Positions 3,531-16,028 of a stretch of DNA of 22,928 bases are shown one piece after another (the stretch's first letter is position 1; every line of letters starts with the position of its first letter). This DNA comes from a virus (Duplodnaviria > Heunggongvirae > Uroviricota > Caudoviricetes). The position numbers and the translations under genes are program-made. The notes beneath the pieces were generated by a model, which saw only the letters and a program-made list of their open reading frames with translations, was not told the DNA's origin and made no database searches. Location of the stretch: the IMG/VR virus record IMGVR_UViG_3300045988_024436, positions 1 through 22,928 of that record. One strand, 5' to 3'.

Positions 3531-3570
3531 GATTTTTTTGAAGATTTTTTCTGCTGATTAACGTTCATTA

Positions 3571-4994: not shown

Positions 4995-5207
4995 TTGAAG
5001 ATAGTAACCAGAATGGAGGCCGCAAAAGCCGGGTTAAATCGCTATTTCACAGGAAAGCGGTGCCGTCACGGCCATCTCTCTGAAAGGTATGTTCTGAACG
5101 GAACATGTGTTGAATGTGCAATGAATAGCGCCAACCGCCATCGTAATGAATTTGCTTGTGCACTAAAGAGTGCAAGAGGGGAAACCTATGGCAAGCAGCT
5201 GGATTAA
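4995..5207 (+). CDS. small zinc-ribbon protein (CII-position gene, function unknown)
   Basis: 70 aa from TTG at 4995 (AAGGGG about 9 nt upstream), or 64 aa from ATG at 5013; CRHGH...CVEC metal-binding pattern; 3' end overlaps the replication gene start. Confidence 0.4.
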   Translation: MKIVTRMEAAKAGLNRYFTGKRCRHGHLSERYVLNGTCVECAMNSANRHRNEFACALKSARGETYGKQLD

Positions 5208-6018: not shown

Positions 6019-6766
6019 GTACGATCGCTTACGTGAGCATGGTGTTGCTGTGCATGAAGAGCGGCGTGACAGCAATGGCAAAAAGGAGCAGGTTGCTAGA
6101 ATTTTCAATGAACTATTTGTCCAGTTACAGGCTGCATTTCCTGCAAGCGTTTCGACCATAAGGGAGCAGAACAAACTTAATGAATTCCGTAAGCAATGGA
6201 TGCTTGCGTTTCTGGAGAATGGGATCACTACAATGGAACAGGTTAACGCTGGTATGCGCCACGCCCGCGCCAGTGAATCTCCGTTCTGGCCGTCGCCAGG
6301 GCAATTCATCAAGTGGTGCAAAGACAGCAAGATGGTTCTTGGCGTCACCATTGACGATGTGATGGCGGAGTTTCACCGGTACAGCAAGGAAAAAAGTTTA
6401 TATCCTGGTGGTCCCGAAAGATTCCCGTGGCGGCATCCGGTTATGTACTGGGTCGTATGTGATACCCGTCGTGCAATGTATCAGCGCCAGCTTAGCGAGA
6501 GTGAGGTTGAGAAACACGCGCGCAGGCTGCTCGATGATTGGGCGAAAAAGGTGGCTTCCGGACAGCAGATACCCGATCCGGTGATCAGCATACAGGCAAA
6601 GCCAGAGCCCATGAGTACACCTCCGGACACAGGGAGAGACGTTTACCATCCACCAGGGCGAAGTTTCGGGTGCATGCCTAACGCCGCCACCCTTGGGGGA
6701 ATAACACCGGCGCAGTGGCTGATGGAGGAATACAGGCGGGGAAAGGCGTCAGGATTTATCAAGTAA
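5990..6766 (+). CDS. P: lambda P-like replication protein (helicase loader)
   Basis: 258 aa; NGITTMEQVNAGMR and FWPSPGQFIKWC match the lambda P protein as recalled; start overlaps the stop of the upstream initiator gene. Confidence 0.8.
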   Translation: MKSTPELLNEYDRLREHGVAVHEERRDSNGKKEQVARIFNELFVQLQAAFPASVSTIREQNKLNEFRKQWMLAFLENGITTMEQVNAGMRHARASESPFWPSPGQFIKWCKDSKMVLGVTIDDVMAEFHRYSKEKSLYPGGPERFPWRHPVMYWVVCDTRRAMYQRQLSESEVEKHARRLLDDWAKKVASGQQIPDPVISIQAKPEPMSTPPDTGRDVYHPPGRSFGCMPNAATLGGITPAQWLMEEYRRGKASGFIK

Positions 6767-6771
6767 TACCA

Positions 6772-6791
6772 GCGCGATAGCGCATTTTTTT
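6772..6791 (+). terminator. weak terminator-like hairpin after the P-like gene
   Basis: GCGC-GATA-GCGC followed by ATTTTTTT; short stem. Confidence 0.35.
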
Positions 6792-6883
6792 ACGTATCGA
6801 TAATTACCTTAGAGGTAATAAAATATTCTAAAATCTATTGATTTCGTGTCTTATGTGGTTTTTAATTACCTAAGGGGTAAATC
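6792..6883 (+). promoter_or_regulatory. promoter with flanking operator-like palindromes upstream of the nuclease gene
   Basis: TTGATT 6838-6843, 17-bp spacer, TTTAAT 6861-6866. TTACCttagaGGTAA at 6804-6818; TTACCtaaggGGTAA at 6866-6880 overlaps the -10 and the SD of the 6884 gene. Confidence 0.5.
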
Positions 6884-7231
6884 ATGAGAAAACAGATGCA
6901 GGCTCTTGGTCGACTCAAAACAGGCCAGATGAACAAAACAGAATCTGCGTATTGCCAGCACCTTGAGCAGCGTAAACGTGCAGGGGAAATCGCTTGGTAT
7001 CGATTCGAGGGTATCAAGCTGCGGTTAGCTGACAACACGTTCTATACGCCAGATTTCGCTGTGATGCTCGCCACCGGCGAGATGGAACTGCACGAAGTGA
7101 AAGGGGGATTCTGGACCGACGACGCCAGGGTGAAAACCAAAGTCGCCGCAGATCAGTATCCGTTCCGAATCATCGGGGTAACGGTTAAACCAAAGAAAGC
7201 TGGTGGTGGCTGGAACATCGAAGAGTTCTGA
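6884..7231 (+). CDS. putative PD-(D/E)XK nuclease (VRR-NUC-like)
   Basis: 115 aa; D...ELHEVKGG arrangement (YTPDFAVMLATGEMELHEVKGG) suggests a D-x(n)-E-x-K active site. Confidence 0.45.
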   Translation: MRKQMQALGRLKTGQMNKTESAYCQHLEQRKRAGEIAWYRFEGIKLRLADNTFYTPDFAVMLATGEMELHEVKGGFWTDDARVKTKVAADQYPFRIIGVTVKPKKAGGGWNIEEF

Positions 7232-7335
7232 ATCGACGATCTTTTTAGTTATCAATGTAATCAATAAGTTATGTGGATAAGCGAGGGTAAAGATGGAAAG
7301 TAATATCAAAAGGGTTAGTTGCCGCCGGGCATGAG

Positions 7336-7755
7336 ATGGCTTCGGAACTGAAAGCTGAATGTGGTGCCGTTGATATGCGCAGTGTGGCAAAGCTGATCAG
7401 CGATTTGGCAACGCAACTGGAAGTGCAACTGGTGCGTGCTAATGCGCTGGCGGCGGAGAATGCGGCGCTGAAACACGCAATGGCCGTAACTCTTGAGCAT
7501 GTGTCGGTCACGGATGCAGGGCAGGCTGGTGTTGCTGCAATGATTATCAACGATGCCCTATACCACAGCGAAACTCCGGTCACCGACGCTCTCCTGGCTG
7601 AAGTACGTGCGCAGGCGTTTAATGACCTTTGCTCGGTGTTCGTTAAGGACGCGACGGTTGCCGGGCTGGACGATGGCGACATCGTTACGGTGAAAGAAGC
7701 GACGGACGCCCTGCTGCATTGTGCGGAGCAGCTTCGCAAAGGAGGCAACCAGTGA
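7336..7755 (+). CDS. hypothetical protein
   Basis: 139-aa track ORF on the coding strand of the operon; weak SD; the minus-strand ORF 7269-7925 is treated as antisense. Confidence 0.4.
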   Translation: MASELKAECGAVDMRSVAKLISDLATQLEVQLVRANALAAENAALKHAMAVTLEHVSVTDAGQAGVAAMIINDALYHSETPVTDALLAEVRAQAFNDLCSVFVKDATVAGLDDGDIVTVKEATDALLHCAEQLRKGGNQ

Positions 7756-8306
7756 GCAAGATTGATTATCAAAAGCTTCGTGAAATCGCTGAAAAAACAA
7801 AAATTGCTGGTGAAGCACCTGTAATGCCTTTCGATCAGCGAATTAATGCGCTTAACGATTTTATGAAGCACTTTTCGCCAGATATCGCGCTGGCATTGTT
7901 GGATGAACGGGAAAGAAACCTGCAATACATCAAAAGCCGCGATCAGGAGAACGAGGATATTGCGCTAACGGTAGGGAAGCTGCGTGTTGAGCTGGAAGGC
8001 AAAGACAGCAAAATAGCCAATCTTACCGCCGAACGCGATGCTCTTCGTGAAGGTGAGATGGGCGACGCTAGGCATAGCAACACACGGGCCGCAGCTGATA
8101 TCTACTTCCAACTGGTCGAGGAGTGCGAAATTCCTGCTGGCGGTTCTCTGGTCGAGTACGTTGACGATATGCGCGAGAAGCTGGAAGCCGCAGAGAAGCG
8201 CATTGCAGAACTGGAAGCACGGGAAATAAAACCAGCCAAAGGTGAAGTTCTTGTCGTTGTTCTGGTTTTACTGGTTGCGGAAAAAGCGCCATCGCCGGGG
8301 AAATAG
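7752..8306 (+). CDS. coiled-coil protein, Ead/Ea22-like
   Basis: GTG at 7752 with SD AAAGGAGG 6 nt upstream, overlapping the upstream stop (GTGA); SKIDYQKLREIAEK... then heptad-rich LEAAEKRIAELEAR; hydrophobic C-terminus VLVVVLVLLVA. Confidence 0.45.
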   Translation: MSKIDYQKLREIAEKTKIAGEAPVMPFDQRINALNDFMKHFSPDIALALLDERERNLQYIKSRDQENEDIALTVGKLRVELEGKDSKIANLTAERDALREGEMGDARHSNTRAAADIYFQLVEECEIPAGGSLVEYVDDMREKLEAAEKRIAELEAREIKPAKGEVLVVVLVLLVAEKAPSPGK

Positions 8307-8314
8307 AAATCGCG

Positions 8315-8503
8315 ATGAAGGCTATTGGTGTACCGGTTAAGTGGACTAATGGCGATGCAGAAAAGCGCATGACTGGCGCTGACTGGCTGACAGCGATTGA
8401 GATGTACAAACCAACTGTGCGCATCGTGGAAGTTAATGTGCCATGCGTCGCTGGCATTTGCATCAAAGGAGACGCAGGAGAGCAAAACGATGAAAAACCG
8501 TAA
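8315..8503 (+). CDS. hypothetical small protein
   Basis: 62 aa; on the operon strand; weak SD. Confidence 0.35.
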   Translation: MKAIGVPVKWTNGDAEKRMTGADWLTAIEMYKPTVRIVEVNVPCVAGICIKGDAGEQNDEKP

Positions 8504-8678
8504 AGCAAAGATTCTGTTAGTTCGTAGAAACGCTCCTGGCGTCTGGCAGTGGGTGAGACTCAGCAACCGACGGATGGGGTTGATGAAATATTACGGGATG
8601 ATGGATTGTGGTTTTTGCAAAAAGCCCAGCGCGGCGCAAAACCGCTGGAAAAACCACTTGCGTACTAAAGGAGAGTGA
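8490..8678 (+). CDS. hypothetical small basic protein
   Basis: 62 aa from ATG at 8490 with GGAG 9 nt upstream; MKNRKAKILLVRRNAPGVWQW...; C-terminal part of track ORF 8397-8678. Confidence 0.35.
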   Translation: MKNRKAKILLVRRNAPGVWQWVRLSNRRMGLMKYYGMMDCGFCKKPSAAQNRWKNHLRTKGE

Positions 8679-8679
8679 T

Positions 8680-8889
8680 ATGGCTATCGCTGCAAGTTAC
8701 ACCATGCATCTCTATTGTGACTGCCGTCAGTGCACGGAAGGTGTATATCCAGTGCCAGACTTCGGTGAGTATATAGGTACGTCATGGGCTGGCTGTGCAA
8801 AAGAGGCGCGCAAGGATGGCTGGCGAATAAGCAAAGACAAAACGCGTGCTTTTGCGCCCGGGCATAAAGTTTTGAGGATTAACAAATGA
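8680..8889 (+). CDS. small Cys-rich protein
   Basis: 69 aa from ATG at 8680 with SD AAGGAGAG; CDCRQC cluster; contains FGEYI, shared with the 10384 gene. Confidence 0.4.
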   Translation: MAIAASYTMHLYCDCRQCTEGVYPVPDFGEYIGTSWAGCAKEARKDGWRISKDKTRAFAPGHKVLRINK

Positions 8890-9833
8890 CCACTATTACC
8901 AGAGAACAAGCTCTGAAAATTATTGAGGCAGCCGATGAGGTTATTAGTGCGCTGGCCGGAACTAACGAGGATGTTCACCCTGGTAGCGATAACATGCTAC
9001 GCCTGTGGGATGACCTGAATGACCGTTACGCGCCGCCGGAAATTGTGCGTGAACTGGCACGGATTGTGCTGGCATCGCTGGAAGCCGAGCCTGTTCTGTA
9101 TCAGTCCTGCACTCGCCCCACCTGGAATAGCGGTGTTCCGTGGACGGAATGGAAAGAACGAAGTCGTGAGTGCTACGAAGACGATTTGCGCTTTACAGAC
9201 ACGCCTGACCATGCCGGTTGGATATACAAATGTCGAAAACTATATACCACTCCGCCAGCGCCGATAGCGTTAGAGGCCATTGAAAACGCAATTGAATACA
9301 TCCGCAGTATCGCTTTTCACATCGATGAAGACGATTACCACGGCAAACATATTGCGTATTTCATGCAGCAAGCATTGGCCTGGCTGGAAGGGCATTCATG
9401 CAGCGACGACAGACTGGGTAAAGCCGAGAATCAACCAGTACGCGGCAACCAGGCTGCCGAATCCAATCGCGATAATGAGTGGACTGGCAATCCTGATATT
9501 GATAACGCCATCATCATGCTCGACCGCATAGATACGCTGGAAAATTGCGATGATGACCGTATTGAGGCTGTTAAGGCTGTTTTGCGTAGACTGGCTGGCA
9601 ACTATCCGGTAATTCCGGATGGTTGGATAAGCTGTAGTGAGCGAATGCCTGAGAACATTCCCGGAAGTTGTAAAGAGTATCTGGTGTTTGATGGGCTTAA
9701 TAATAAAGTTCATCACGATTACTGGGTTGTCCCTGATGGAGACAGTGCGCCAGTTGCGTCGTTCTGGAATCATTACGGGGCACATGTAACTCACTGGATG
9801 CCTCTACCGGAACCGCCGCAGGAGGTTAATTGA
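8886..9833 (+). CDS. DUF551-like phage protein
   Basis: 315 aa; C-terminal GWISCSERMPE...VTHWMPLPEPPQ resembles the DUF551 signature as recalled; SD GAGGA before the ATG. Confidence 0.55.
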   Translation: MTTITREQALKIIEAADEVISALAGTNEDVHPGSDNMLRLWDDLNDRYAPPEIVRELARIVLASLEAEPVLYQSCTRPTWNSGVPWTEWKERSRECYEDDLRFTDTPDHAGWIYKCRKLYTTPPAPIALEAIENAIEYIRSIAFHIDEDDYHGKHIAYFMQQALAWLEGHSCSDDRLGKAENQPVRGNQAAESNRDNEWTGNPDIDNAIIMLDRIDTLENCDDDRIEAVKAVLRRLAGNYPVIPDGWISCSERMPENIPGSCKEYLVFDGLNNKVHHDYWVVPDGDSAPVASFWNHYGAHVTHWMPLPEPPQEVN

Positions 9834-10117
9834 TGGTCTCCTTCGCGAAATATACGATTATTGACTGGATAGCATTCATTCAGGTTTTGCTCATCTGGTT
9901 TTATATGGCTTACAGGAGTGGACAGTGGATTGTCAGTGTAGCCTGTAGCAATGGATGGCGTTGGTGGAACCGAAAGAATAAAAAAGCGCTGGCCTTGGCT
10001 TCGTTTTACGAAGCATTCAATCTTAACAGTCTTCAGCCTGGTTCTGTCGTTGTAGTCACCACTCAAAGCGGCATGACGATACAAATTCACAAGCCAAAGG
10101 AGGAAGGTCGTGGCTAA
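9833..10117 (+). CDS. small membrane protein
   Basis: ATG at 9833 overlapping the upstream TGA; SD AGGAGG 7 nt upstream; hydrophobic N-terminal segment IIDWIAFIQVLLIWFYMAY. Confidence 0.4.
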   Translation: MVSFAKYTIIDWIAFIQVLLIWFYMAYRSGQWIVSVACSNGWRWWNRKNKKALALASFYEAFNLNSLQPGSVVVVTTQSGMTIQIHKPKEEGRG

Positions 10118-10391
10118 CCTGCAACTTGCCGTTAAAGGTGAATACTTCGATGCCATGATTCGCGGAGAGAAAACGGAAGAGTATCGCCTGTGTAATGACT
10201 ACTGGAATAAGCGAATTATGTTCCGCGAGTATGACCGCCTGATTATCACAAAGGGATATCCGAAGCGCGACGATTCCAGCCGCAGAATTGACGTCCCGTA
10301 TGACGGATATGAAATCAAGACAATCACACATCCGCACTTCGGCGATAAACCGGTAAAGGTGTTCGCTATAAAGGTGAATATTGATGGCTAA
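10110..10391 (+). CDS. ASCH-like domain protein
   Basis: GTG start with SD AAGGAGGAAGG; EYFDAMIRGEKTEEYRL fits the ASCH G-x-K-T-x-E-x-R motif. Confidence 0.45.
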   Translation: MANLQLAVKGEYFDAMIRGEKTEEYRLCNDYWNKRIMFREYDRLIITKGYPKRDDSSRRIDVPYDGYEIKTITHPHFGDKPVKVFAIKVNIDG

Positions 10392-10722
10392 ATCAGCAGC
10401 AGAGCGCAAAGCCGCTCAGAGAGCCAGACAAGCTGCATCTGGTGTGCGTAAGCTGGAAATTGTGCTTGATGCTCAGGAAATTGAAATGCTGGAGCGTAAC
10501 TGTGCCACGCGTCGCCCCGGGCGTGCGCCTTACGAATTTGGTGAGTATATAGCGTTACTGATCCGCCAGGATGATGCACGCGTGCACGGGCGTATAAAAT
10601 CGATCAGCAGAAAACGTTGCGGTAAGTGCGGCGAGAGAGTTCCTGTGAATTCATGCCCGTGTGATGGTGACTCGCAATGCTGGGTGACTAAAGGCTGGCA
10701 TGAAACGAAATTAATAGTGTGA
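10384..10722 (+). CDS. Cys-rich protein, possible zinc-finger regulator immediately upstream of the late operon
   Basis: ATG at 10384 with SD AAGGTG; C-terminal CGKCGERVPVNSCPCDGDSQC; stop TGA overlaps the palindrome GTGACATGTCAC. Confidence 0.4.
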   Translation: MAKSAAERKAAQRARQAASGVRKLEIVLDAQEIEMLERNCATRRPGRAPYEFGEYIALLIRQDDARVHGRIKSISRKRCGKCGERVPVNSCPCDGDSQCWVTKGWHETKLIV

Positions 10723-10771
10723 CATGTCACGAGTAGATTATGCATGATGAATTTGATGGGGTTTGAATACT

Positions 10772-10797
10772 GCCGCCAACTATGGCGGCTTTATTTT
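10772..10797 (+). terminator. rho-independent terminator between accessory genes and terminase
   Basis: GCCGCC-AACTAT-GGCGGC followed by TTTATTTT. Confidence 0.55.
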
Positions 10798-10803
10798 GCA
10801 TGG

Positions 10804-10841
10804 TACTATTACCACAACGGTAACTATTACCACGGTGGTTA
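10804..10841 (+). promoter_or_regulatory. operator-like palindromes and direct repeat upstream of the terminase small subunit
   Basis: TTACCacaacGGTAA at 10809-10823 and TTACCacggtGGTTA at 10827-10841; direct repeat ACTATTACCAC at 10806-10816 and 10824-10834. Confidence 0.4.
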
Positions 10842-11296
10842 TGATGCCTGCTGAACCTAAAGCCTATAAACGCAAATCAACGCAATTTAAGCCACTAACA
10901 GCAATGCAGGAGGCTTATTGCCAGTCATACATCAAAACGCCTGAAAACCAGACTCAGGCAGCGATTAACGCAGGATTCTCCCCAAATACAGCGGCAGTTA
11001 AAGCCAGTGTCATGATGCGCGATGAACGCATTCAAAAACGGATTGCCGAGTTGATGGAGGAGCGCAACAAACGAATGCGCGTCAGTGCTGATTACGTTCT
11101 CATGCGCTTGGTGGAGATCGACCAGATGGACGTGATCGACATCCTCAACGACGATGGTAGCCTTAAGCCAATCCGAGAGTGGCCGAAAATCTGGCGCACT
11201 ACGCTTAGCGGCTTTGATCTGTCATCGACCATCATGAACATGAACGAGGATTCGATAGAGACAATCATCAAAAAATTAAATGGCCTGACAAGGTGA
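10841..11296 (+). CDS. terminase small subunit, probably C-terminally truncated by a frame change
   Basis: Track ORF starts at 10763 but its first 26 codons are the terminator and operator DNA, so ATG at 10841 or 10844 is preferred. A protein-like frame ([20 protein letters not shown]...[10 protein letters not shown]) continues from 11290 to a TGA at 11431-11433 that overlaps the GTG of the large subunit. Confidence 0.55.
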
Positions 11297-11429: not shown

Positions 11430-12908
11430 GTGACAGATACAGCGTTATCTCCTGAAGAGCAGTTAATCGAGATATTGCAGGGTTCACTCACGATCCGCTT
11501 GGCTATGCCCTCTATGGGTTCCCCGTGGGGGGGAAGGAGGGTACTGAACTGGCGACATGCCACCGGTCCACGTCAGTGGCAGGCCGATGCGTTCCGAGAG
11601 ATACGTGATCACCTGCAGAATCCAGAGACGCGATATCAGCCGCTTATGCTGGCACGTGCTTCTGGTCACGGTATTGGTAAATCCGCATTCATCTCAATGC
11701 TGATCAACTGGGGCATGTCCACTTGCGAGGATTGTAAGGTCGTGGTGACCGCCAACACCGACAACCAGCTACGAACGAAGACCTGGCCGGAAATTATCAA
11801 GTGGTCAAACCTTGCTATCACGAAAGACTGGTTTACCTGTACCGCTACCGCGATGTACAGCAATGACCCTGGGCACGACAAGCGGTGGCGAGCTGACGCA
11901 ATCCCCTGGTCTGAGCACAACACTGAGGCATTCGCCGGACTACACAACGAGCGTAAACGCATCATCGTGGTATTTGATGAAGCGTCGAACATTGCGGATC
12001 TGGTGTGGGAAGTTGCCGAGGGTGCGCTAACGGACGAAGACACTGAGATTATCTGGGTGGCTTTCGGAAACCCTACACGTAACACCGGGCGTTTCCGTGA
12101 ATGTTTCCGCAAATACAAACACCGCTGGAAAACTGCGCAGATTGACAGCAGGACGGTGGAAGGCACCAACAAACAGCAGTTGCAGAAATGGGTTGATGAC
12201 TACGGGGAAGATAGCGACTTCGTTAAAATCCGTGTGCGTGGCATATTCCCTGATGCATCTGAATTGCAGTTTATCCCTACCGGTCTTACTGACGAGGCAA
12301 TGAAACGGGTGGTAACTGCTGCGCAGGTGGCACATGCTCCGGTGATAATCGGCGTTGACCCGGCATACTCCGGCGTTGATGACGCTGTGATATACCTGCG
12401 GCAGGGGCTACACAGTAAGGTGCTGTGGACTGGCAACAAGACTACCGACGATCTGATTATGGCGAAGCGTATCGCTGACTTTGAAGACCAGTATCAGGCT
12501 GACGCGGTGTTCATCGACTTCGGTTACGGAACCGGTTTGAAGTCAATCGGTGACGGCTGGGGTCGTACATGGCAACTTGTTCCGTTCGGTGGCGCGTCTA
12601 CTGACCAGCAGATGCTCAACAAGCGTGGGGAGATGTTCAACTCATGCAAGACATGGCTGAGGCTGGGCGGCATGCTTGATGACCAGGAAACAGCGGACGA
12701 CCTGTCGGCGGCAGAGTACAAAGTTCGAGTGGACGGTAAAATCGTTATCGAACCGAAGGAAGATATCAAGGAGCGGCTTGGGCGTTCTCCTGGTAAAGGC
12801 GATGCGCTACTGCTGACGTTTGCGTTCCCGGTGTCAAAGCGCCTGCGAATTCCCGGGCAGCAGAACCAGCAAGGCAAGGCCATTACAGATTACGATCCCT
12901 ATGCTTAA
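11430..12908 (+). CDS. terminase large subunit
   Basis: 492 aa; ATPase-like N-terminal half and nuclease-like C-terminal half ([11 protein letters not shown]...DAV); GTG start overlaps the upstream stop. Confidence 0.8.
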
Positions 12909-12958
12909 TCCGTTAGCGGGGATAATGACGGAGATATCCTCTGGTGAGGATAAAACAA

Positions 12959-12978
12959 AGCCAGCTCATCGGCTGGCT
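12959..12978. terminator. hairpin terminator after terminase, stronger on the minus strand
   Basis: AGCCAGC-TCATCG-GCTGGCT; T-rich on the minus side (TTTGTTTTAT) and TGTTTGT on the plus side. Confidence 0.5.
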
Positions 12979-13184
12979 GTTTGTGACATGTCACGGTGTT
13001 AGAAGGTTATTTTATCGAATGCGGCGTTGATTGCCTTGGCGTCCTGCTCAGCACCAACCACATCAAGTAAAGATCTTTTACTAAGCACTTCAGCCAGGCA
13101 TTGTAACTTCATTGTTGTATAAGGTTTTTCGCGCATTGTAATTCATCATCACTTTTTTCTTTGGCGTATACAGCGCGAGAAATA

Positions 13185-13427
13185 TCAAACTACATTGCCT
13201 TTTTCCATTTCAGTTTTCTGCGCTGAAATCCAGTCATGGCAAGTAACTCCTATTCCATGGTCATCGCTAAGCGTTAACCCGGCAAGTCGCTCACCTGGAA
13301 TTGCTTCACAAAGCATTTCATTTCCTGCAAAAACACCATAAAAAATTGAGTCATCACCCTGAACAATGCGTACATATTTGCACGGCCATTCATTTAGATA
13401 TTTAGCTAGCATGTCGGCTGTTTTCAT
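13185..13427 (-). CDS. hypothetical 80-aa protein in minus-strand insert between terminase and head genes
   Basis: ATG at 13425-13427 with SD AAGGTGAG; opposite strand to the flanking late genes; lies between two minus-strand terminators. Confidence 0.4.
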   Translation of the reverse strand: MKTADMLAKYLNEWPCKYVRIVQGDDSIFYGVFAGNEMLCEAIPGERLAGLTLSDDHGIGVTCHDWISAQKTEMEKGNVV

Positions 13428-13436
13428 GATCTCACC

Positions 13437-13459
13437 TTAAAAAAATGCCCGGCGAACCG
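13437..13459 (-). terminator. rho-independent terminator (minus strand) immediately upstream of the 80-aa ORF
   Basis: Minus strand reads GCCCGG-TTCG-CCGGGC then A TTTTTTT, ending 2 nt before the SD. Confidence 0.6.
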
Positions 13460-13496
13460 GGCGAACTGGAAGCAATGAGTTATGCCTTCCGTGGCT

Positions 13497-13512
13497 GTAC
13501 TGGTTTACAGCA
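13497..13512. promoter_or_regulatory. LexA-box-like palindrome CTGTA-N6-TACAG
   Basis: CTGTACTGGTTTACAG fits the CTGT-N8-ACAG SOS-box core with CTGTA/TACAG arms; centre less AT-rich than canonical boxes. Confidence 0.3.
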
Positions 13513-13540
13513 TGAAGCCATCGCAATGGCGCCCTGCTGT

Positions 13541-13582
13541 AAAAAGGGCGGTGATAGTCCTTCAAGGGAAACCATCACCGCC
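13541..13582 (-). terminator. terminator-like hairpin downstream of the tRNA (minus strand)
   Basis: 9-bp stem GGCGGTGAT/ATCACCGCC (13547-13582), 18-nt loop, followed on the minus strand by CTTTTTAC. Confidence 0.45.
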
Positions 13583-13626
13583 AAGCCCCTGGAACTTCTG
13601 GCATCACGGTCCTTAGGCGTGATTCT

Positions 13627-13702
13627 GGCGTGGCATGCAGGATTCGAACCTGCGACCAACCGCTTAGAAGGCGGTTGCTCTGTCCAGCTGAGCTAATGCC
13701 AC
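13627..13702 (-). tRNA. tRNA-Arg (anticodon UCU)
   Basis: Reverse complement GTGGCATTAGCTCAGCTGGACAGAGCAACCGCCTTCTAAGCGGTTGGTCGCAGGTTCGAATCCTGCATGCCACGCCA folds as a cloverleaf: 7-bp acceptor stem, anticodon loop CTTCTAA, T-loop TTCGAAT, encoded CCA. Close to E. coli argU as recalled. Confidence 0.9.
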
Positions 13703-14129
13703 AACGCTGAGAGCACTTAGCCTGTTAAGGCGCCACACTTTGTCGCGGCTCCATAAATGCTCTCATCGTTGTACCCTCGTCTCTTCCGAGGCGTCACACC
13801 GAATCGCCGGGATGGTGAATCCCCGTGCGCGGAATAAAACCGCTCGACTTGCACATTCCGGCTACCTGGTTCGTTTGCCCGAGCAAGGGAGGGTGCCCCT
13901 TAAACGTATCCAGACCGCTATCGGCGCATGTGCCATACGCCGTACTGCTCAAAATAAAAGCTCACTCCACCTGTTCAATTTAACGACAAGCCAGTCAGGT
14001 TAGTAACCGGAATGAACTCTTTGGTTACCTGAAAGGTAATAATTTGTGCGTTAAATGTCAACTGCCTACGATAAATAAATCATATGTGGTTAAATTGGTA
14101 ATAATTTAATTGCGTACGGAGTCATTGAT

Positions 14130-14350: not shown

Positions 14351-16028
14351 ATGGCGGAAACAACTAAAGAGCGATTGAACAAACAGTTCGCACAACTTGA
14401 AAGCGAGCGTCAGTCGTTCGAGCCGCACTGGCGCGAGTTGAGTGATTACATCAACCCGCGTGGTTCCCGCTTTCTGACTTCTGAGGTTAACCGTAACGAT
14501 CGACGCAATACACGCATTATTGATTCGACCGGGACTATGGCGGCGCGCACTCTCGCCAGCGGCATGATGTCAGGCATCACAGCCCCGCGCGTCCGTGGTT
14601 TCGCCTGGCTAGCCAGATCCTGAAATGATGGATTATGGCCCTGTTAAGTTGTGGCTTGAGGCGGTGCAGAACCGCATGAACGATATGTTCAATAAGTCGA
14701 ATCTCTATCAGTCGCTGCCGCAGTTATACGGAAGCCTCGGCACATACAGCACTGGTGCAATGGCAGTGCTGGAGGATGACGAGGACATCATTCGCACAAT
14801 GCCATTCCCGATAGGCAGTTACTACCTGGCTAACTCACCTCGTGGCAGTGTGGACACCTGTTTTCGCAAGTTCTCTATGACTGTTCGTCAGCTTGTTCAG
14901 GAGTTCGGGCTAAATAACGTCAGCGAATCCGTAAAAAGCATGTGGGAAAGCGGAACCTACGAGAAGTGGATTGAAGTGATGCATTCGGTTTACCCGAACA
15001 TTGACCGCGATACATCGAAGCTGGATAGCAAGAACAAGCCATTCAAATCGGTTTATTACGAGGTTGGTGGCGATAACGACAAGTTGTTGCGTGAGTCCGG
15101 ATTCGATGAGTTTCCAATTATGGCTCCGCGCTGGGAAGTTAACGGCGAAGATGTTTATGGATCATCATGCCCGGGTATGCTGGCGCTTGGACCTGTTAAG
15201 GCATTGCAGCTTCTCCAGAAGCGCAAGTCGCAGTTGATTGATAAAGCCACCAATCCGCCGATGGTTGCTCCGACTTCCCTCAAGAATCAGCGTGCCTCCC
15301 TTCTTCCTGGCGACATCACGTATATCGATCAGATTACTGGTCAGGATGGTTTCAGGCCTGCTTATCTGGTTAACCCCAGTACAGCAGATTTGGTGGCAGA
15401 CATTCAGGACACCCGTCAAATCATTAACAGCGCCTACTTTGTCGATCTGTTCATGATGTTGCAGAACATCAATACCCGCTCGATGCCTGTTGAAGCGGTG
15501 ATCGAAATGAAAGAAGAAAAACTTCTGATGTTGGGGCCGGTTCTGGAGCGTCTGAACGACGAATGTCTTAATCCTCTCATTGACCGCGCTTTCTCGATGA
15601 TGGTGCGTAAAAACATGCTGCCGCCACCGCCTGACGCGATGGAAGGTATGCCCCTGAAGGTCGAATACATTTCCGTCATGGCTCAGGCGCAGAAGTCTAT
15701 CGGCCTGTCCAGTCTGGCGTCTACGGTCAACTTCATTGGTCAACTTGCGCAAGCGAAACCAGAAGCTCTCGACAAACTCAACGTTGATCAGGCGATCGAT
15801 GCATTCGCTGATATGTCCGGAGTGTCTCCAACCGTCATTGTTCCGCAGGAACAGGTTGAGCAGGCTCGCCAGCAACGGGCACAGCAACAACAGCAGCAAC
15901 AAATGATGGCGATGGGGATGGCGGCGGCACAGGGTGCCAAGACGCTAAGCGAAGCTAAAACTTCGGATCCGAGTGTTTTGTCAGCTATGGCGAATGCAGT
16001 TAGTGGTCAGGGTGGGCAATCACAATGA
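14351..16028 (+). pseudogene. portal (head-to-tail connector) protein, apparently split by two nearby frame changes (or sequencing errors)
   Basis: ORFs 14351-14623 (90 aa) and 14625-16028 (467 aa) are in different frames. The third frame across the junction encodes SPARPWFRLA (14581-14610), which resembles the P-x3-W-x-RL stretch of T7 gp8; a C4 run lies at 14583-14586. Poly-Q near the C-terminus. Confidence 0.65.

Follow-up and report, generated by a model that had tools for sequence, protein, structure and literature searches.

The plus-strand gene run at 6884-10722 of a 22,928-nucleotide (nt) stretch of Caudoviricetes DNA (IMG/VR record IMGVR_UViG_3300045988_024436, positions 1 to 22,928, hereafter the window) is probably the distal hypervariable accessory segment of the rightward early unit of an ε15/phiV10-type prophage, framed by anchor genes, separately repressed and ending at its 3′ side in a regulator gene, g10. 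By its sequence matches, the source DNA is assigned to a Uetakevirus (ε15/phiV10-like) prophage of Escherichia coli. The whole window is matched at 80% coverage or more and about 98% identity by 100 complete E. coli genomes, whereas at least 80% of the interval 6700-10900 lies in one place in none of 5,426 complete E. coli genomes (best, 71%). As the backbone is common to many genomes and the segment is absent from them as a unit, we regard the segment as mosaic on a common backbone. It aligns only piecewise with phiV10 p45-p55 (53% covered, 94.5% identity), and fragments of it are also matched by many lambdoid, Stx and P1-like phages.

The run is 97% coding and most of its junctions overlap, in agreement with the tight coupling described in a first-pass annotation of this DNA. 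The junctions measure −4 nt for g2/g3 (GTGA), −14 for g4/g5, +1 for g5/g6, −4 for g6/g7 (ATGA), −1 for g7/g8 and −8 for both g8/g9 and g9/g10; the sole sizeable gap, 104 nt, separates g1 from g2. That annotation counted about ten genes, three of them encoding very small proteins. We count nine, two of them disrupted, because the open reading frames (ORFs) g3 and g4 are one frameshifted gene; the small ORF at 8315-8503 is an artefact of that frameshift, and the tiny genes are g5 and g6 only. Minus-strand ORFs in the region (for example 7269-7925) were rejected as unsupported and antisense to well-supported genes. The genes are as follows.

6884..7231, + strand: g1, DUF1064 PD-(D/E)XK nuclease, conserved 5′ anchor (PF06356, phrog_190)
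7293..7755, + strand: g2, Eae-like, broken where the A-run 7308-7311 has one A too many (ORF called earlier, 7336-7755)
7752..8503, + strand: g3+g4, a single gene of the Ead/Ea22 family, cut in two by the loss of one T at 8260-8261 (D6/phiV10 alignment)
8490..8678, + strand: g5, 62 amino acids, phiV10 p51-like (phrog_1380, E 1e-40)
8680..8889, + strand: g6, 69 amino acids with four Cys, phiV10 p52-like (phrog_926, E 8e-37)
8886..9833, + strand: g7, mosaic 315-amino-acid protein with a C-terminal DUF551 (PF04448, E 9e-14, residues 246-312)
9833..10117, + strand: g8, DUF4752, one N-terminal hydrophobic segment (PF15944, E 3e-34)
10110..10391, + strand: g9, ASCH/PUA-like fold, semi-conserved 3′ anchor
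10384..10722, + strand: g10, 112-amino-acid predicted ribbon-helix-helix protein with a C-terminal Cys4 knuckle, homologue of ε15 gp49, phiV10 p55 and N15 gp46

We compared gene content across 63 IMG/VR relatives, chosen for a g10 at least 96% identical and at least 4.5 kb of upstream sequence, and scored a gene as present at 70% or more identity and 70% or more coverage. The anchors are retained (g1 in 57, g9 in 37, g10 in 63, terS in 62 and terL in 61), whereas the middle genes are each found in between none and eight relatives (g2, 1; g3, 3; g4, 8; g5, 6; g6, 7; g7, 0; g8, 8). Partial matches to g7 occur in 55 of the 63, and none is full-length. The distance from the end of gene P to g10 ranges from 1,949 to 4,788 nt, and a crude clustering of slot ORFs from 60 loci gives 67 clusters, which in relatives include NinX, an HNH nuclease (with a weak, sub-threshold match to NinG), DUF4222, DUF7739 and a Dam-type methylase. 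Kept anchors, exchanged middle genes and variable length together identify the segment as an accessory slot, and so uphold the earlier suggestion of accessory cargo between replication and packaging.

Judged from gene families and position, this slot appears to be the Uetakevirus counterpart of the lambdoid ea/nin regions. It would be framed by the g1 nuclease at the 5′ end and by the ASCH-fold protein g9 and the regulator g10 at the 3′ end, and mosaic ea/nin-type genes (Eae-like, Ea22-like, the two tiny proteins, DUF551 and DUF4752) would be exchanged by recombination between these anchors. Both ε15 (gp43-gp49) and phiV10 (p45-p55) share with the window, in the same place and order, one or more Rep operators, a resolvase-type nuclease, Eae-like and Ea22-like genes, small ORFs, DUF551, a small protein, a 112-amino-acid 'transcriptional regulator', a terminator, a further Rep operator and terS. 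The middle genes differ in every genome and the window copy has two frameshifted genes; ε15 carries a RuvC-type resolvase at the position of DUF1064 and has neither the ASCH nor the DUF4752 gene. The lambda exo-xis/nin and P22 ea regions (Ea22, Ead, Eae, NinX, NinG) share the Ead_Ea22 family with the window, and NinX with the slot in its relatives. In lambda, Ea22 is encoded in exo-xis and is reported to be pro-lysogenic; the slot genes belong instead to the rightward operon, where they separate replication from packaging. Ead_Ea22 proteins combine a conserved N-terminus and a coiled coil with swappable C-terminal domains, and DUF551 is a portable domain (PMC10834534).

Rep operators and terminators stand on both sides of the slot, which can accordingly be viewed as a delayed-early unit that is repressed separately. 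The 17-base-pair (bp) palindrome ATTACC-N5-GGTAAT, our Rep operator, has nine sites in the window, where 0.6 would be expected (3742, 3804, 4516, 4901, 6803, 6865, 10808, 10826 and 14024), at every operon junction, late units included, and the pairs 3742/3804 and 6803/6865 are both spaced 62 bp apart. In the ε15 record the protein_bind features labeled 'repressor' match it exactly, the syntenic one at 35906-35922 among them. The same 62-bp pair (35906 and 35968) precedes the ε15 resolvase gene, and the ε15 equivalent of the terS-upstream operator (12-27) is annotated as repressor-binding, so that bracketing of this kind is already on record for ε15 and is not new. A reading of ATTACC-N5-GGTAAT as boxB-like RNA hairpins was rejected, as the loops are unconserved and the sites are annotated repressor operators. 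The elements flanking the slot are listed below.

6772..6791, + strand: weak intrinsic terminator after gene P, GCGC-gata-GCGC followed by U7 (RNA fold −7.4 kcal/mol, z −2.25)
6797..6824, + strand: sigma-70-like promoter TCGATA-16-TAAAAT with a Rep operator in its spacer (consensus scan only)
6803..6819, no strand: Rep operator ATTACCTTAGAGGTAAT (motif count and ε15 annotation)
6865..6881, no strand: second Rep operator with 1 mismatch, 62 bp from the 6803 site, overlapping the g1 ribosome-binding site
10772..10797, + strand: strong intrinsic terminator between g10 and terS (−14.5 kcal/mol, z −4.1)
10808..10842, no strand: pair of Rep operators side by side, abutting the terS ATG (10841)

The slot would thus begin after a terminator and a Rep operator pair that overlaps a promoter-like site, an arrangement that would allow direct silencing in the lysogen and separate transcription as a delayed-early unit. 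The phiV10 equivalent of 6772..6791 is annotated as a putative rho-independent terminator, and the strong terminator at 10772..10797 is kept in ε15, PAT1, phiV10 and a Klebsiella phage and absent in BUCT554. The records differ on the terS start, which is a TTG equivalent to 10763 in phiV10 and an ATG equivalent to 10841 in ε15; the ATG looks more likely, as the TTG would place the strong hairpin and two Rep operators inside coding sequence. In BUCT554 (L006 1850-1905) and the Klebsiella phage ST512-KPC3phi13.3 (L007 1850-1905) an extra gene lies between g10 and terS, with a strong sigma-70 promoter (TTGACT...TATACT) upstream that overlaps a LexA-box-like TACTGT-N8-ACAGTA; its BUCT554 product looks UmuD/S24-peptidase-like by eye.

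The only element of the region with some novelty is g10, a candidate regulator paired with a palindrome into which the stop codon of its gene is built. From its structure model, g10 is predicted to be a ribbon-helix-helix (RHH) DNA-binding protein with a zinc-knuckle tail: the monomer prediction has an RHH core to which a basic helix is added at the N-terminus and a Cys4 knuckle at the C-terminus. Over aligned residues 20-112 it is 98.9% identical to phiV10 p55 and 77% identical to ε15 gp49. A Cys-rich protein had been proposed at the late-operon boundary, and g10 answers to it. Profile searches add little to this picture. The Pfam scan of g10 (E up to 0.1) returned only a weak DUF4457 match, with no RHH or Q-family model and nothing reaching E 0.01; NCBIfam gave only a sub-threshold LexA-regulated protein (14 bits against a cut-off of 62), and neither database gave a match to the Ogr/Delta family. 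The model does not have a Q-like fold, and Foldseek against BFVD found only a fragment of the same family. Compared with the small RHH proteins Arc, CopG, MatP and the RHH domain of PutA, g10 has the additional N-terminal helix and Cys4 knuckle, and the site proposed for it is found where the g10 gene ends and beside terminators instead of at a promoter. It resembles lambda Q, Ogr/Delta and Mu C in its position at the early/late boundary, its small size and its Cys-rich motif, and differs from them in having no sequence or fold similarity.

The palindrome, GTGAC-NN-GTCAC, occurs in the window as two exact copies.

10719..10730, no strand: GTGACATGTCAC, holding the g10 TGA stop codon, proposed g10 operator (co-occurrence)
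12983..12994, no strand: exact repeat of GTGACATGTCAC, closely following the terL terminator

To survey it we used 133 non-identical IMG/VR loci from three subfamilies, whose proteins are 36-42% identical to the window g10. GTGAC-NN-GTCAC is present in 128 of the 133, on ε15-like, N15-like and P2-like backbones and always in the register G[TGA]C; the survey total is 206 hits in 2.24 Mb against 2.1 expected, and as loci inside each subfamily are related these counts represent only about four to five independent contexts. The palindrome sits at the stop codon in the window, ε15, PAT1, the Klebsiella phage and BUCT554 (where the centre is AG), in N15 gene 46 (CGTGACTGGTCACG) and in a Yersinia P2-like phage (TTGTGACGCGTCACAA); in ZF40 it lies 2 nt past the stop of gp22. 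Three exact copies are found in each of ε15, N15 and ZF40, those of N15 and ZF40 being of each phage's own variant of the site. The three copies of ε15 and BUCT554 are syntenic (g10 stop, after terL and gp18-homologue stop) and each lies 1-41 nt from an intrinsic terminator; the copy after terL recurs in ε15 (2142), BUCT554 (5660) and phiV10. In Uetakeviruses the three sites precede three late units (packaging, virion and tailspike), and opposite-strand morons are inserted between terminator and operator. From this co-occurrence we infer both that g10 binds the palindrome, which we consider rather likely, and the outcome of binding proposed below.

The N15 copies (L018) are at 28550, 33237 and 39269, and the two away from the g10 homologue fall in the interior of repA and in an intergenic region. 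In ZF40 (L020) the copies are at 5125, 7622 and 14944, those away from the g10 homologue lying inside gp08 and a cII-like gene. An RNA role for GTGACATGTCAC was rejected, its folding energy (−2.9 kcal/mol, z −0.18) being no better than that of shuffles. The phiV10 genome end falls inside the palindrome, and we rejected this as pac or cos evidence as well: the record, like that of Tyrion, was opened after the last stop codon, and ε15 is opened elsewhere. Our literature search found no report of the palindrome sequence in a phage context.

A g10 dimer would bind the 12-bp site that includes the gene's own stop codon, a site that recurs beside terminators at late-unit boundaries: one copy follows terL, and ε15 and BUCT554 have a further one where the gp18 homologue ends. 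Control of transcription across the early-to-late and inter-late junctions would then be the most likely role of g10. Such a junction or late-gene regulatory role is plausible from the arrangement of sites; that g10 controls late transcription in this phage is a more tentative proposal, which we would put below even. The first-pass annotation had suggested, from position, that the Cys-rich protein is a late-gene regulator. A predicted DNA-binding fold and a cognate-looking palindrome at the early/late junction favor this suggestion, and the co-existence of homologues with Q-like genes, the Rep operators that late units carry for themselves and a PerC-family candidate count against it. That no Q-like antiterminator is recognizable holds for the scanned window genes and for the ε15 and phiV10 record annotations. 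Not every product of the run can be assigned to a housekeeping function, and no canonical late regulator was found.

Several observations weigh against our reading of the region. The link between protein and palindrome is one of co-occurrence, drawn from related loci in some four to five independent contexts, and the palindrome is lacking in distant homologues (Vibrio K308, locus L009). In N15 and ZF40 the extra copies are away from late junctions, within coding sequence of early genes (repA, gp08 and the cII-like gene). One palindrome sits downstream of its hairpin, and BUCT554 has no g10-terS terminator. The ε15 lysis unit has a Rep-like operator and no palindrome, and repressor operators are annotated for the late units themselves. 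Beside their g10 homologue, N15 and ZF40 both have a gene annotated as Q-like, and in the Yersinia P2-like phage a small regulator gene follows gpD, which by position corresponds to ogr of P2; the g10 family is therefore no general substitute for a late activator. A PerC-family activator gene on the minus strand at 627-926, in the leftward early operon (PF06069, E 6e-7), is another candidate late or conversion regulator. Promoter consensus matches, including those at the slot, occur at chance frequency (4 found against 5.4 expected).

Two other accounts of g10 and its palindrome have to be set beside this. In one, g10 is a functional analogue of lambda Q, binding the palindrome over the −35 element (GTGACA) of a weak promoter at 10719-10748 and then allowing read-through of 10772-10797 and later terminators. 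The promoter-like site at 10719-10748 does overlap the palindrome and is followed by the strong terminator, although the promoter match is at chance level. Lambda PR′-tR′ is laid out as a promoter, a short leader and a terminator, and the order here is the same; ε15 and PAT1 have GTGACA-17 nt-TAAATT ahead of the same hairpin. Because two Rep operators fill the space from the 10772 terminator to the terS ATG, leaving no room there for a promoter, terS seems to need either read-through or a promoter farther upstream, such as one at the palindrome; this also favors a junction or late-gene role for g10 in general. Neither the scanned window genes nor the ε15 and phiV10 annotations contain a Q homologue. 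Yet the predicted fold of g10 is RHH and not that of Q, and no Q-family Pfam model matches at E 0.1. At neither of the other two palindromes is a suitably spaced −10-like element present, and one of the two is the copy downstream of its hairpin; the terminator missing from BUCT554 and the annotated Q-like genes alongside homologues in N15 and ZF40 also speak against this account, and we think it unlikely. In the other account the palindrome is no g10 operator at all. It would be a host-factor site, or a composite element of terminator and module boundary, carried along by its overlap with the stop codon. We consider this quite improbable, for the palindrome follows the g10 gene into three other backbones (N15-like, P2-like and ZF40) where no terminator comes after it, about three copies are retained per genome, the spacing is N2 as opposed to the N3 of matS, and the sequence is unreported in a phage context in the literature searched. 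Our preferred reading, in which g10 acts on the palindrome at transcription junctions, can be extended to the whole family (ε15 gp49, phiV10 p55, N15 gp46) as an undescribed class of RHH-zinc-knuckle junction regulators that would switch passage through terminators as a DNA-site-dependent antiterminator or as a roadblock; this extension is speculative and we hold it doubtful.

Several of the slot genes can be described individually, and most family labels given to them earlier hold. At the 5′ anchor, g1 scores above the curated cut-off for PF06356 (26.2 bits against 24.7), matches phrog_190 ('Holliday junction resolvase') at E 9e-44, and its translation contains the catalytic motif P56-D57 with E71-V72-K73, in line with its initial description as a putative PD-(D/E)XK nuclease. 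DUF1064 is a predicted PD-(D/E)XK nuclease family (PMC1189080), and g1 is probably the junction resolvase of the phage, as its profile matches and the RuvC-type resolvase at the ε15 position suggest. The DUF551-like label of g7 is confirmed by its PF04448 match. The protein labeled as a small membrane protein is the DUF4752 member g8, whose hydrophobic segment spans residues 8-26 (19-residue Kyte-Doolittle mean, 1.82). For g9 the ASCH-like assignment holds at the level of fold, the predicted structure being an ASCH/PUA-like beta-barrel; its score against Pfam ASCH is below the cut-off (14.3 bits against 21.2). Sequence searches of the PDB with g1, g7, g9, g10 and the intact D6 Ea22 homologue gave no usable match, and an NCBIfam scan of the region's proteins gave noise only. 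The sole Rfam match is a tRNA: a tRNA-Arg(TCT) gene on the minus strand (13626-13702), in a moron island (12909-14100) between terL and the portal operon that also holds two small minus-strand ORFs.

The two disrupted genes are broken by single-nucleotide indels. In g2 the A-run at 7308-7311 is A4 in the window and A3 in 53 of 53 relatives; the gene starts at ATG 7293, preceded by a GAGGG Shine-Dalgarno sequence, and the 139-amino-acid ORF at 7336-7755 is its 5′-truncated remainder. Its product is 44.7% identical to phiV10 p46 ('eae-like') over residues 6-191 and matches phrog_492 at E 1e-41. The 184-amino-acid ORF at 7752-8306 and the 62-amino-acid ORF at 8315-8503 are likewise one gene, which reads GTTGTTCTGG in the window and GTTGTTTCTGG in D6 and phiV10. 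The T-run at 8260-8261 is T2 in the window and T3 in D6, phiV10 and 7 of 7 IMG/VR relatives, and the deletion occurs in none of the 5,426 complete E. coli genomes. Restoring one T yields a single 250-amino-acid ORF, colinear with the intact 215-amino-acid D6 protein. Programmed frameshifting was rejected, there being no slippery heptamer and the extra T in D6, phiV10 and the seven relatives keeping one frame. Family membership is clear from g3, which covers the full Ead_Ea22 model (PF13935, positions 1-139, E 4.5e-18) and matches phrog_250, and g4 matches the later portion of phrog_250. The product had been called a coiled-coil Ea22-like protein with a hydrophobic C-terminus; the family stands, and the hydrophobic tail, VLVVVLVLLVAEKAPSPGK, is out-of-frame read-through. 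The intact C-terminal domain of this variant (D6 L002 2501-3148; repaired window 7752-8503), no more than about 80 residues long, begins with VLVVVSGFTGCGKS, which fits a Walker-A-like GxxGxGKS motif.

The middle genes might be taken for counter-defence cargo, anti-restriction or anti-abortive-infection functions expressed early against host immunity, and the disrupted ones for signs that the prophage is a decaying, defective remnant with partly pseudogenised cargo rather than a live phage with sequencing errors. The counter-defence role is conjecture. The genes do carry the usual accessory signature, being hypervariable, small and mosaic between conserved anchors; relatives hold a Dam-type methylase and other nin-type genes in the slot, and the ASCH/PUA-like fold of g9 is related to readers of modified nucleotides. 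Set against this, Pfam, NCBIfam, PHROGs and PDB sequence searches gave no match to a characterised anti-defence protein, and PHROGs lists every middle gene as function unknown. PADLOC, whose models cover defence and not anti-defence, gave nothing below E 0.01 for the ten ORFs. Slot families go unmentioned in those parts of the accessory-gene screen literature that were accessible, and Ea22, the only family with experimental data, is reported to be pro-lysogenic in lambda and Stx phages (PMC10834534). Counter-defence therefore seems to us an unlikely description of the middle genes. Decay is a more serious possibility, one that we put only somewhat short of even. Window-specific 1-nt indels, absent from all or nearly all relatives, are also found at 1676-1844, 3539-3545, 11270, 11471-11554, 13113-13191, 14581 and 14612. 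They break terS, whose frame changes near 11270 (indel missing from 68-75 of 75 relatives), the portal gene at 14581 and 14612 (frames 2, 1, 3; missing from 75 of 75) and RecT near 1680 (missing from 9 of 9). On the other side, both indels of the region and those at 3539, 3545 and 11270 lie in homopolymer runs, the portal indels lying outside such runs, and the indels are unique to the window while substitution identity to relatives is 98-99%, a pattern typical of homopolymer-prone reads.

Taken as a whole, the region is an ordinary, already-annotated kind of phage accessory segment made up of catalogued families. As a well-delimited diversity hotspot with Rep operators on both sides, the slot could be mined for accessory functions. 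ε15, phiV10 (which has served in O157 reporter assays) and many prophages of E. coli and Salmonella are Uetakeviruses. On how they switch on their late genes we found nothing in the literature searched, which did not extend to the ε15 genome paper, and the ZX5 paper is silent on late regulation and on the g10 gene. The predicted RHH-zinc protein, with its stop-codon palindrome repeated at late-unit boundaries, offers a concrete and testable hypothesis. If it is true, the g10 family would fill the place of a late-gene switch in ε15-like phages, where regulators of the Q, Ogr and Mor/C types are all missing.

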